From: an uncultured Candidatus Saccharibacteria bacterium
GTDB lineage: Bacteria > Patescibacteriota > Saccharimonadia > Saccharimonadales > UBA4665
Direction of reading: 5' to 3'
Assembly: GCA_964574245.1 (NCBI GenBank)
Contig: CAZNLV010000005.1
Span: 1 to 34,963 of the forward strand
DNA length: 34,963 bases
The position numbers and the translations under genes were made by a program. The notes under the pieces are model-generated. The model saw nothing but the letters and a program-made list of their open reading frames with translations, was not told the DNA's origin and searched no databases. Each line of letters starts with the position of its first letter. The first letter of the stretch is position 1. Below are positions 6,883-12,801 of the stretch, piece after piece.

Positions 6883-6959
6883 ATCCTGAACTTGATTCAG
6901 GATCCCGCTCGGAGACATTGAGGTTTTCAAGCGAGATTCCGGGTCAAGCGCGGAATGAC
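6883..6959. repeat. Composite double-hairpin intergenic element, copy 2 (hairpin A, then B)
   Basis: Hairpin A is atcctgaa-cttga-ttcaggat (6883-6903). Hairpin B is attccggg-tcaag-cgcggaat (6936-6956), followed by gac. Confidence 0.8.
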
Positions 6960-7068
6960 ATGGCAAGCAAGCGCGAGAGCTGTCATCTCGATCGAAGCTA
7001 AAAGGTCTTACGAGGTGAAACCCCTCTCCGTACAATCAATCAACCAAGGTAAACAAGGAGAACTATCA

Positions 7069-7278
7069 ATGGAAAACATCGCATTTGCACTCGCCTATGC
7101 ACTACCAGCACTCGGTGCCGCTATGGGCGTCGGTTTGATCGGTAAGGGCGCCCTCGGTGCTGCCGGTCGCAACCCCGAAAAAATCGGTGAGCTCCGCACC
7201 CTCATGATCACCGCCATCGTCTTTGCTGACTCCCTAGCCATCATCGGTATCATCGTCGGCTTTTTGGCCAAGGGCTAG
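7069..7278 (+). CDS. atpE: F0 ATP synthase subunit c (69 aa)
   Basis: MENIAFALAYALPALGAAMGVGLIGKGALGAAGRNPE... has the Gly-rich helix 1, the RNPE loop and a helix-2 carboxylate (FADSLAI). AAGGAG lies at 7055-7060. The ORF-track start at 6955 would translate the repeat element. Confidence 0.93.
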   Translation: MENIAFALAYALPALGAAMGVGLIGKGALGAAGRNPEKIGELRTLMITAIVFADSLAIIGIIVGFLAKG

Positions 7279-7316
7279 AAGTAGTAGGTAGTTTATAGTT
7301 TTTAGTTTGTAGTAAG
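7276..7316. repeat. 7-bp tandem array TAGTNNN x5 following the atpE stop codon
   Basis: TAG occurs at 7276, 7282, 7289, 7296, 7303 and 7310. The units are tagtagg, tagttta, tagtttt, tagtttg and tagtaag. Confidence 0.85.
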
Positions 7317-7323
7317 GATACAT

Positions 7324-7872
7324 GTGACATATTTATTTACACAATTTGCGAGTGAGGCGGCCAACGCCGAAGCTACAAACCCCGTGAAGGCGCTGGGCAT
7401 AGACGCTAAACTGCTCGTGTTTCAGATTATTGCTTTTACGATTTTAGTATGGCTGCTCGGCAAATACGTTTTTCCCGTACTCATGAAAGCAGTCGATGAA
7501 CGCCAGCGAAAGATTGACGAAGGCAATGCTGCAGCACTCGAAGCCGCCAAAAATGCCGCTGAAAGCGAAGCTAAAATGGCCGAGATGCTGAAGAAAGCTC
7601 GGTCCGAAGCATCGGACATCGTCACCACGGCCAAGGAAGAAGCAGCAGGTTTGATCGCAAAGAGTGAGGAAAAATCAAAGGTACAAGCCGAACGCATCGT
7701 AGCAGCTGCACACGAGTCTATCGAAAAAGACGTGCTGGCCGCTCGAAAAGCCCTGCACAACGAAACCGTCGAGCTGGTCGCCCAAGCGACCGAAAAAGTG
7801 GTAGGCAAAAGCGTCTCAGATACGGTGGACAAAAAAATTATCATGGAATCTATAAAAGAGGTGCAGGCATGA
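7324..7872 (+). CDS. atpF: F0 ATP synthase subunit b (GTG start)
   Basis: An N-terminal TM helix (LLVFQIIAFTILVWLLGKYVF) is followed by a long Ala/Glu/Lys-rich coiled coil. Operon position fits, and AAGGA lies 6 nt upstream. Confidence 0.9.
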   Translation: MTYLFTQFASEAANAEATNPVKALGIDAKLLVFQIIAFTILVWLLGKYVFPVLMKAVDERQRKIDEGNAAALEAAKNAAESEAKMAEMLKKARSEASDIVTTAKEEAAGLIAKSEEKSKVQAERIVAAAHESIEKDVLAARKALHNETVELVAQATEKVVGKSVSDTVDKKIIMESIKEVQA

Positions 7873-7884
7873 GCGTCGCCTCCT

Positions 7885-7970
7885 GTCATTTCGAACGTGT
7901 TTCGGAATCCATACGTCTGCAAAGTCGTCCGGTTGTCGCCTCCGCATGGATCCTGAAACACGTTCAGGAT
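7885..7970. repeat. Composite double-hairpin intergenic element, copy 3, inverted orientation (hairpin B, then A)
   Basis: gtc, then hairpin B atttcgaa-cgtgt-ttcggaat (7888-7908). Hairpin A is atcctgaa-acacg-ttcaggat (7950-7970). In reverse complement, the flank after hairpin A reads ccatgcg, as in copy 1. Confidence 0.8.
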
Positions 7971-8401: not shown

Positions 8402-9937
8402 GTGGCAGACATAGCAGTCACAGAAGTATCAAAAGGTCTCCGCGATGCGATTGCGCGGCTGGAGAGTGGTGAGAACATGGAATCAACGGGTGTTGTCACT
8501 CGTGTGGGTGACGGTGTTGCTTGGATTCATGGCCTGAGAGGCGCCGGATATGCCGAAGTACTCGAGATTCAGACCAAAAAGGGCGTCATCGAAGCGTTTG
8601 CCCTCAACCTCATGGAGGACGAAATTGGCGCCGTGCTGCTTGGAGATGACAAGAACGTCGTCGCGGGCGATGCGGTGAAGCTGAAAGGTGTTGTCTTGGA
8701 CGTCCCAGTTGGACCGGAGCTCCTTGGTAGGGTCGTCAACCCTCTGGGTCAACCACTCGACGGTGGCCCGGCTATCAAAACCAAAGAGACCGGCCTCGTT
8801 GAACGGGCCGCCATCGGTGTCATGGGCCGCAAAGGAGTTCATGAACCCCTTATGACGGGCATTGTCTCTATCGACGCTATGTTCCCGATTGGCCGGGGGC
8901 AGCGCGAGCTGATCATCGGTGACCGCCAGACGGGCAAAACGGCTATTGCACTTGATACGATGATCAACCAAGGCCGCCAGAAGACTGGCGTCGTCAATAT
9001 CTACGTTGCCATCGGTCAGAAGCTCAGTAAGGTGGCTCGTCTCGTCGAACGGCTCAAACAAGAAGGCGTCATGGACCAGACTATCGTAGTGGCGACCGGG
9101 CCGAGTGATCCGGCCTCCCTGCTCTATCTCGCACCGTATGCCGGTACGGCCATGGGTGAATGGTTCCGCGACAATGGCAAACACGCGCTCATTATCTACG
9201 ACGATCTGACCAAGCATGCGGTTGCCTACCGCCAGATGTCACTGTTGCTCCGTCGCCCACCGGGGCGAGAAGCTTTCCCGGGTGATGTGTTTTACCTGCA
9301 TTCGCGCCTGCTCGAGCGGTCAGCTAAGCTGAGCGATGATCTGGGCAATGGCTCATTGACGGCTTTACCTATCATCGAAACACAGGCCGGCGATATTAGC
9401 GCCTACATCCCGACGAATGTTATCTCTATCACCGACGGCCAGATTTTCATGGAAACAGACCTGTTTTATCAGGGTATTCGCCCGGCTATTTCAGCAGGCT
9501 TATCTGTTTCCCGTGTCGGTGGAGCTGCGCAGACCAAAACGGTCAAATCGGTTGCCGGTGGCCTGAAACTCGGTCTCAGCCAGTTCCGCGAGCTTGCCGC
9601 TTTCGCGCAGTTTGGCTCGGACCTCGACGAAGCTACCAAAAAACAGATCGAGCGCGGCCAACGCCTGACCGAACTACTCAAGCAGGCGCAGTACAGCCCA
9701 CTAAGCATCTGGGAGCAGACTGCCTCGATTTTTGCTGTCAACGAAGGTCATTTCGACAATGTCTCCCGTGAAAAAATCAAAGACGCTCAAGCGGCGTTGC
9801 TCGCTCGTCTTGCAAAAGAACACGGAAAAGAAATGGATGCACTGAATACAGGTGACGAAAAAGTTGAAACCGATAGTGCCATTGGCAAACTGCTGGCCAA
9901 AGTCGCCGAAGCAACCGCGAAAGGCTTTGAGGGATAA
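8402..9937 (+). CDS. atpA: F1 ATP synthase subunit alpha (GTG start)
   Basis: Walker A GDRQTGKT, plus [63 protein letters not shown] and ITDGQIF. Confidence 0.98.
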
Positions 9938-9943
9938 ATATGC

Positions 9944-9978
9944 GAGTCACGAGTCACGAGTCACGAGTCACGAGTAAT
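9944..9978. repeat. Heptad array (GAGTCAC)x4 plus GAGTAAT, left arm of the atpA-atpG spacer
   Basis: Read directly: four perfect gagtcac units at 9944-9971, then gagtaat. Confidence 0.95.
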
Positions 9979-10007
9979 ACGGAATTTATGGTCTGGCGAA
10001 GCCAGTC

Positions 10008-10035
10008 CTATCTCCTATCTCGTATCTCGTATCTC
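10008..10035. repeat. Heptad array CTATCTC x2 plus GTATCTC x2, right arm (an inverted, imperfect complement of the left arm)
   Basis: Read directly. The reverse complement is GAGATAS, which matches GAGTCAC at 5 of 7 positions per heptad. Confidence 0.9.
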
Positions 10036-10054
10036 GGCCTGAACGGAGTGCGGC

Positions 10055-10920
10055 ATGGCTAGTACTCGGCAGCTCAAAGGCCGGATTCGTTCGGTCAAAA
10101 GTACCAAGCAGATAACAAAAGCCATGCAAATGGTAGCGGCGAGCAAAATGCGCCGTGCGCAAGATGCTACAAAAGCGACGCAGGACTATACGCGTACCGC
10201 CAATGAACTGCTCGCTTACCTTTCGAGTCAAGGTGCTACGGACAAGCACCCGCTGTTCCAAAAACGACCGGTAAAAGGTCGACTCATCATCGTCATCGCT
10301 GCCGATAAAGGATTGGCTGGCGCTTACAATGCCAACGTCATGAAGGCGTACATCCAAGCCCTGCGTGACGACGACAAAAACGGCGTGCGCAACGAAACGA
10401 TCGCTGTGGGCCGCAAGGCATCTCAGTTCGTGACCCGGCTCAAAGATACCGAGATTTGCGGGACCTACACTGACCTCCCGGATCATCCGGAGGGGGCGGA
10501 GTTTTATGCCATTCTTACCACAGCTTGTGCGATGTTTCAGGAGGGTAAGGTCGACGCGGTTGACATCATTTACACCAAGTTTGTCAGCAGTATGACGCAG
10601 GTCGCAGCAACTGACCGGATTTTGCCCGCGGGCTTTGCCAAGGCAGATGTGACTGCTTTTGTGCGTGACGCTGTGTACGAGCCGAGCACTGACGTGGTTC
10701 TCGAGGGGGTTGCCCGCCGACTCGTGGGCGCAGAGATATTCCAAGCCCTGTTAGATGCTCGGGCCTCCGAGCACAGCATGCGCATGCTTGCCATGAAAAA
10801 CGCGACGGATAATGCCGGTGAGTTGGTAGATGATTTGACGCTCGAAATGAACAAGGCTCGTCAAGCAGCCATAACCCAAGAACTGGCGGAAATATCCGGC
10901 GGCGCCGAGGCCATGAAGTA

Positions 10921-10921
<1 letters not shown>
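10055..10921 (+). CDS. atpG: F1 ATP synthase subunit gamma
   Basis: N-terminus RIRSVKSTKQITKAMQMVAASKMRRAQ and C-terminus NKARQAAITQELAEISGGAEA. Confidence 0.96.
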
Positions 10922-12751
<1,830 letters not shown>

Positions 12752-12752
12752 G

Positions 12753-12801
12753 GAACATGAAGTATGCATCTAGAATCATGAATCATGACTTGCACCTCAT
12801 G
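12753..12801. repeat. Degenerate 7-bp array, consensus AATCATG, about 7 units, in the atpD-atpC spacer
   Basis: The units are gaacatg, aagtatg, catctag, aatcatg, aatcatg, acttgca and cctcatg. Confidence 0.75.

Follow-up and report, generated by a model that had tools for sequence, protein, structure and literature searches.

We propose, with a probability of about 0.6, that the spacer between atpA and atpG is a gene-less, IVS-like insertion element with heptad arms that is kept open as a translational-coupling relay. The IVP (PF05635) cassette located 1 kb downstream is probably the cargo-bearing form of the same family. Members of this family fill the stop/start junctions of operons (atp, ribosomal proteins) and also occur in frame inside genes, and the atpA-atpG junction of related genomes is either free of any insert or occupied by a gene-less foldback, by a complete IVP cassette or by what remains of one. 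One species differs from the next in its heptad units, and paired arms as well as elements of the same genome change together. From this concerted change we infer a homogenisation at the DNA level that is somehow tied to IVP; the candidate processes are array slippage, templating across the palindrome, and events between copies, either conversion or re-insertion.

The window, i.e., the whole stretch of 34,963 nt analysed here, is contig C5 of a 1.0-Mb genome (89 contigs, 51.5% GC) whose related records come from wastewater and sludge. It carries an atp operon with the gene order atpB-E-F-H-A-G-[IVP]-D-C. The initial annotation had divided the spacer into (GAGTCAC)x4+GAGTAAT, a 29-nt core and (STATCTC)x4, and all of its coordinates proved right. 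At a finer scale, GAGTCAC x4 occupies positions 9944-9971 and GAGTAAT positions 9972-9978; TRF reported CGAGTCA x4.7 with 100% matches for the left arm and x4.0 with 95% matches for the right arm. On the 3' side of the right arm, a small hairpin at 10037-10054 presents the atpG Shine-Dalgarno box (example CGACCGGAGGUCG). Equivalents of this hairpin were observed in L002-L018, and it is kept in most of the foldback-bearing species.

Searches against Rfam returned no match at the gathering score across the window, rRNA families included. No terminator-like site (GC stem plus T-run) was found on the + strand between 9700 and 11500, and no promoter-like site was found in the spacer. Elsewhere in the operon, RNA-type and other contigs join position ~6904 to 7946 with 16-17 other letters between (region 6902-7946), a joint that probably corresponds to a repeated double-hairpin element of the atpB-atpE and atpF-atpH spacers and not to splicing.

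Features of the atpA-atpG junction and of related heptad elements. Positions are those of the window unless another contig is named.
Feature	Position	Strand	Remarks
Heptad array TAGTTTN	7289..7313	+	atpE-atpF spacer
atpA stop codon TAA	9935..9937	+	GAG GGA are the last atpA codons
atpA-atpG spacer	9938-10054		117 nt
Mini-ORF, 40 codons + TAG (MRVTSHESRVTSNTEFMVWRSQSYLLSRISYLGLNGVRHG)	9940..10062	+	covers the entire foldback
Spacer left arm	9943..9978	+	(CGAGTCA) x4.7, GAGTAAT at end
Spacer core, 29 nt	9979..10007	+	GC mini-hairpin ctggc-gaa-gccag at 9993-10005
Spacer right arm	10008..10036	+	CTATCTC x2, GTATCTC x2; heptads span 10008-10035
atpG Shine-Dalgarno box GGAG	10045..10048	+	ATG 6 nt further on
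atpG, ATP synthase gamma subunit	10055..10921	+	PF00231, E 1e-87; ATG at 10055
IVP gene, PF05635, four-helix bundle	10921..11322	+	probable cargo-bearing sister element of the spacer
IVP cassette right arm (GTCGTGACTCGTAACTCGTGTCTAGTACCTCG)	11309..11340	+	near-perfect complement of the spacer left arm
Heptad array GAATCAT	12766..12788	+	atpD-atpC spacer
Other in-gene arrays or foldbacks	C30:8882-8967, C79:1766-1795, C69:1866-1897, C1:25657-25859, C8:10264-10297		

The junction had been described as an apparently empty site. Instead, it holds a conserved, well-formed foldback that is crossed by one ORF in 13/13 species. In the window, this mini-ORF (peptide MRVTSHESRVTSNTEF...) begins 2 nt beyond the stop of atpA and runs, stop codon included, to 7 nt inside atpG (ATGGCTAG). 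A Shine-Dalgarno-like box, GAGG, lies in the last atpA codons, 7 nt upstream of the mini-ORF ATG; judging from the sequences, this box would serve atpG directly in insertion-free relatives. The equivalent ORF of the 13 congeners has 32-42 codons and is the sole open frame in each. Its ATG overlaps the atpA stop or follows it by 0-6 nt (TAATG in 7 species). The ORF terminates on the atpG ATG (TAATG) in some species and 7 nt inside atpG (ATGGCTAG) in the others. Shuffled spacers yielded such an ORF in 7-22% of the trials (~0.15 per species), which gives a product of 8e-12 over 13 species. However, since the species are related, 13/13 amounts to fewer than 13 independent events, and with ~5 independent unit families the conservation of the ORF has a p of ~1e-4.

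Relay ORFs of the form TAATG...TAATG or ATGA cover other foldbacks of the genome, two on C4 and one on C45, and gene-less foldbacks that lack a relay ORF exist at rplJ-rplL and atpE-atpF. The IVP cassette opens like the mini-ORF: the IVP ATG overlaps the atpG stop (TAATG), and the left arm (10927-10962) is translated as the N-terminus of IVP, whose stop lies inside the right arm. Furthermore, the mini-ORF and IVP read their left arms in the same frame (VTSHESRVTS..F..W vs ....W), and no Pfam-scale similarity of the mini-ORF to IVP was detected. In the RNA-type data, one low-depth contig covers positions 9890-10077.

Taken together with the position of the GAGG box and of an ATG 2 nt past the atpA stop, the insert would begin at the old initiation site of atpG. 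Ribosomes leaving atpA would then translate the foldback, melt its stem and terminate on the atpG start, and the insertion may have been tolerated because such a relay preserves translational coupling. By analogy with rRNA IVS, an untranslated stem may be cut by RNase III.

To compare the junction between genomes, we use the 19 congeners with data, 13 of which have the same foldback design at atpA-atpG in spacers of 96-131 nt. In their common plan, ~4 tandem units precede a GC mini-hairpin at the core position, and ~4 tandem units of partly complementary sequence follow it, before a short segment with the Shine-Dalgarno box. The unit differs by species (CGAGTCA, AAGAGNY, ATGAATC, AGTATCT, GTAGCAT, GAATGAC-GTATGG), with at least five unit families. 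When 9 spacers were aligned with MAFFT, RNAalifold yielded no consensus structure, since the heptad registers are not alignable by sequence, and co-variation of the arms was tested instead by comparing duplex energies of cognate and non-cognate arms. Cognate duplexes had a mean of -21.1 kcal/mol vs -12.9 kcal/mol for non-cognate ones (permutation p ~1e-5), and the cognate assignment ranked 1 of 120 permutations when one representative per unit family was used. These results indicate that the left and right arms co-vary.

Outside this group, the atpA-atpG spacer measures 0-15 nt in most Saccharibacteria, indicating that the element is a derived insertion. At the same junction, L209 (MAG contig CAZOOQ010000008.1; atpG 74% identical) carries an intact IVP cassette. 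Its IVP is 67% identical to that of the window and is the closest relative found for it, whereas the atpG-atpD IVPs of nearer relatives are 48-56% identical. The congener G024 retains at atpA-atpG a remnant of the last IVP helix (45 bits, 51% identity by BLASTP vs the window IVP); Pfam scans of the remnant peptides gave no match. At atpG-atpD, IVP cassettes were found in no fewer than 9 genomes, and the same junction of G016 retains the arms together with an IVP 3' remnant. At atpD-atpC, an IVP cassette is found in G014 and G011, and a gene-less foldback in G023. In the IVP-less G024 and G019, the orthologous junctions are either free of an insert (2-9 nt) or filled with remnants that are of similar length but not periodic.

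Non-heptad sequence of 160-660 nt was also observed at atpA-atpG in L007, L013 and L016 and at atpG-atpD in L002, L003, L010, L011 and L016; these inserts contain small non-IVP ORFs, e.g., 75 aa in L007. A second, weak atpG-like match (23-25% identity) lies at C37:7287-7895 and recurs in almost all genomes of the order; it may represent the stalk subunit of a further ATPase of the rotary or secretion type.

Folding of the spacer bore out the pairing of its arms but not an exceptional structure. The arms are 5/7 complementary per unit and form, as terminal inverted repeats, an extended stem of 5-bp ACGAG:CUCGU blocks with 2x2 loops between them, and the duplex of the spacer's own arms reaches -24.6 kcal/mol. 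Taken alone, this copy is not a striking hairpin, as its fold (-37.6 kcal/mol) has a z of only -1.4 vs shuffles and the complement score of its arms, 16, remains below the 99th percentile of the genome null (18). Spacers of relatives fold more strongly, with z down to -5.2. A stronger duplex of -41.4 kcal/mol joins the left arm of the spacer to the right arm of the cassette (9943-9975 with 11309-11340, 1.33 kb apart). This pairing exceeds the own arm pairs of both elements and would enclose atpG and IVP; it could affect RNA folding or recombination. Summed fold energies showed no strand asymmetry (-432 kcal/mol for the + strand, -448 kcal/mol for the - strand), and the argument from such an asymmetry for a structure acting at the RNA level was dropped.

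The genome-wide count that the initial annotation had called for revealed a strong excess of period-7 arrays: 57 arrays of at least 3 units have period 7, compared with 5, 3, 0 and 1 for periods 8, 9, 10 and 11, respectively. Most are 4.3-5 units long, and the unit families include GAGTCAA, GTAGTTT, CTCTTAA, AGGTTAT and TTGATCA. Well-formed inverted pairs lie in the ribosomal-protein region of C4 (four pairs), before rplL (C16) and before rpsB (C44), and a pair before purE on C45 has the opposite orientation. Several contigs begin or end in long perfect arrays of 7.7-8.6 units (C18:1-55, C22:13002-13055, C49:6183-6241 and C81:1-55), and C18 begins with (ACTCGTG)x8, the complement of the spacer unit. 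Since arrays break the assembly, the numbers of arrays and IVP genes in this MAG are lower bounds. Heptad arrays thus split short-read assemblies, and they also inflate ORF calls. In four DNA metagenomes, contigs break at the (CGAGTCA)n array, whose depth is 7-40 times that of its flanks. No presence/absence joint was found at the locus in these four metagenomes, which differ only by SNPs, e.g., 10015 C>G.

Elements of the same design also lie inside genes. The GTPase gene der (C40:1413-1553) contains an in-frame foldback of 141 nt composed of arms, a GC mini-hairpin and arms. At this site, 0 nt is found in 14 of 25 congeners; in the remaining ones, inserts of 39-210 nt keep the frame and are periodic in some cases and decayed in others. 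This pattern of presence and absence indicates that the elements are insertions and that they are read through inside genes. In the right arm of der, precisely the would-be in-frame TGA triplets are lost. The host genes of in-frame elements comprise der, an M1 aminopeptidase, an AlaRS-like gene, a helicase and a methyltransferase.

A Pfam-model search detected three PF05635 genes in the genome (C5:10921, C12 and C2), compared with one by tblastn, and inverted heptad arms, built of a different unit for each gene, flank all three. The left arm of the spacer had been noted to match that of the cassette down to the terminal unit, and our alignment confirmed it: 30 of 36 positions agree (CGAGTCA vs CGAGCCA), terminal CACGAGTAWTA included, with a score of 42 vs a shuffle maximum of 24. 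The likeness claimed for the right arm held in part, as its score of 25 equals the shuffle maximum, but it emerged from the comparison between genomes. In the 7 genomes that have both elements, permutation of own-genome vs other-genome arms showed that the spacer arms are closer to the cassette arms of their own genome (p = 0.007 for the left arm and 0.001 for the right arm). Other arrays of the GAGTCA type match the left arm as well or better (C18:1-55, score 66; C40, score 46). In L008, the order of variant units is repeated between spacer and cassette, and the gene-less hairpin before rplL on C16 has the TTGATCA unit and a 15-nt string in common with the left arm of the cassette on C2.

The own-genome match of the arms, together with the L209 cassette at atpA-atpG, upholds the earlier proposal of one architecture that occurs with and without cargo. 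The related claim of an occupied and an unoccupied site holds between genomes, where L209 has a cassette, G024 a remnant and others 0-15 nt, but not within populations, since the polymorphism in cargo seen among relatives had no counterpart in the four metagenomes. Compared with the IVP cassettes, the spacer has paired arms of ~4-5 heptads around a core, the unit family of the resident cassette and a site that is IVP-occupied in a relative; its only ORF has 40 codons and it contains no IVP ORF.

We observed that the density of arrays and the number of IVP genes are strongly correlated (Spearman rho 0.91, p = 3e-4) across 10 genomes sampled at 98 kb to 1 Mb each, with kinship ignored. Arrays number 0-0.6 per 100 kb, which equals the background level of periods 8-9, where the genome has 0-1 IVP genes, and 5.7-21.7 per 100 kb where it has 3-12. 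The contrast recurs inside one subclade, in which G003 and G015 are high and G004 and G024 low, and the heptad foldback family was met only in IVP-bearing genomes. Since the IVP-less G024 and G019 hold nothing or non-periodic remnants, these observations suggest that active maintenance of the periodicity is confined to genomes with IVP genes.

Tentatively, and with a likelihood that we place clearly below even, the IVP (S23p/Avd-like) proteins might be trans-acting partners of the heptad arrays. Each IVP would bind and propagate or homogenise its own 7-nt 'dialect', perhaps with one heptad per subunit of a pentamer, a number suggested by the array length of 4.3-5 units. Gene-less foldbacks would be non-autonomous copies that stay periodic as long as an IVP gene is present and decay after its loss, and the elements would persist in operons as translatable mini-ORFs that relay ribosomes at stop/start junctions. 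To our knowledge, no enzymatic activity is known for IVP. A link to the DGR/Avd system was rejected: no reverse transcriptase was found in the genome, making a mechanism of the DGR type unlikely.

Several observations count against the insertion-element reading, namely the weak fold and the 5/7 complementarity of the arms in this copy, and the fact that other arrays of the genome match the left arm more closely than the cassette arm. Neither a transposase nor a clear target-site duplication was identified; TAATG flanks some copies on either side (C4, L008) but not the spacer copy. We therefore weighed this reading against other explanations. The spacer could be the footprint of a former IVP cassette that lost its gene by internal deletion or excision and left its arms behind. 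Such an origin is rather improbable, although it is compatible with an insertion element that acts as a relay. It would account for the intact cassette of L209 at the very junction, with an IVP closer to that of the window than those at atpG-atpD, for the IVP 3' remnants of G024 at atpA-atpG and of G016 (with arms) at atpG-atpD, and for the reading frame of the left arm that the mini-ORF shares with IVP. However, comparison of the core with the interior of IVP gave no significant match (p = 0.08 for the window cassette and 0.9 for L209), and its derivation from IVP coding sequence was rejected on these values. Moreover, the core is a well-formed central palindrome common to close relatives and not ragged like the remnants of G016 and G024, and occupied and empty forms do not coexist in the four metagenomes. 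The term 'excised' used in the initial annotation is thus not supported.

A dedicated RNA element of the atp operon, serving as an RNase III site or as a 3' stabiliser that sets the alpha:gamma ratio with incidental heptads, seems to us unlikely, slightly more so than a footprint. It agrees with the conserved position in 13 congeners, the co-variation of the arms, the presence of similar hairpins in other highly expressed operons and the RNase III gene that is present in the genome. RNase III also cuts the stem of the Coxiella IVS, which is partly made of heptamers (PMC4990558), and mRNAs at Correia elements (PMC10969869). Nevertheless, most Saccharibacteria, with spacers of 0-15 nt, do not need such a signal, and the same elements occur in frame within der and other genes and in the opposite orientation at C45. 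The lack of asymmetry between strands, the decay in IVP-less lineages and the stem of this copy, whose breaks after every 5 bp suit RNase III badly, further disfavour the processing or stability signal between atp cistrons that had been offered as an alternative. Finally, we consider it highly improbable that the arrays are ordinary slippage microsatellites whose likeness to the cassette is a coincidence in a GAGTCA-rich genome. The left arm does have matches as good as the cassette arm among other arrays of the genome, and the complementarity of the arms in this copy is within the null range. Yet array lengths cluster tightly, unlike those expected of free-running slippage, and this explanation was largely refuted by the absence of arrays from IVP-less congeners, by the arm tests (co-variation over 5 unit families and genome-specific match between spacer and cassette) and by the conservation of the ORF in 13/13 species.

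The insertion-element reading places the spacer close to several known systems. The IVS of 23S rRNA (Coxiella burnetii helix 45, Leptospira, Salmonella) occur with or without an S23p/IVP ORF, and the stem of the Coxiella IVS contains tandem heptamers, GACAGAT x2-3, in strain-dependent number (PMC4990558). Like them, the family described here consists of foldbacks with terminal inverted repeats, has ORF-bearing and ORF-less forms and carries a PF05635 ORF. Unlike the 23S IVS, which reside in rRNA helix 9, 25 or 45, the spacer lies in an mRNA between the atpA stop and the atpG start, its arms are made wholly of 4-5 heptads, and the gene-less form is a short ORF coupled to both neighbours. Correia/NEMIS and ERIC elements (PMC10969869) are likewise foldbacks of ~100-150 nt that lie between genes, become part of the transcribed mRNAs and differ in presence among relatives. 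In contrast to such MITE-like repeats, only the architecture is conserved here while the unit changes by genome, and a four-helix-bundle gene is associated instead of a cognate transposase, none being known here. Sister copies in frame in housekeeping genes, read as protein loops, recall the Rickettsia palindromic elements (RPE; PMC10969869); RPE belong to another phylum, and the arms here are periodic heptads. Tandem heptamers of unknown function are also found in Cyanobacteria (STRR), Beggiatoaceae and Bacteroidetes (TAACTGA) (PMC4679880). As with STRR and TAACTGA, the period-7 arrays described here are abundant between genes, also in ribosomal-protein operons, and have strain-specific units. 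However, they form inverted pairs around a core or a gene and are linked to IVP, a link unmentioned in PMC4679880.

Heptamer repeats, IVS elements, in-frame palindromic elements (RPE) and MITEs cut by RNase III are already known. In the searchable literature, heptamers adjoining an S23p ORF were noted only in the Coxiella paper (PMC4990558), and we found no description there of a quantitative link between IVP and heptad arrays, of the alternation of a cassette and a gene-less foldback at one operon junction, of the concerted change of arm units within a genome or of a conserved relay ORF.

The role of the proteins encoded by 23S IVS (PF05635) and the abundance of tandem 7-base repeats in some bacteria are two puzzles that are ~30 years old. 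Both appear as one system in tiny CPR genomes, where the density of the repeats follows the number of IVP genes and the repeats decay without IVP. Furthermore, the gene-less form suggests how an essential coupled operon can bear a hairpin of 100 nt, namely through an ORF that would hand ribosomes over from atpA to atpG.
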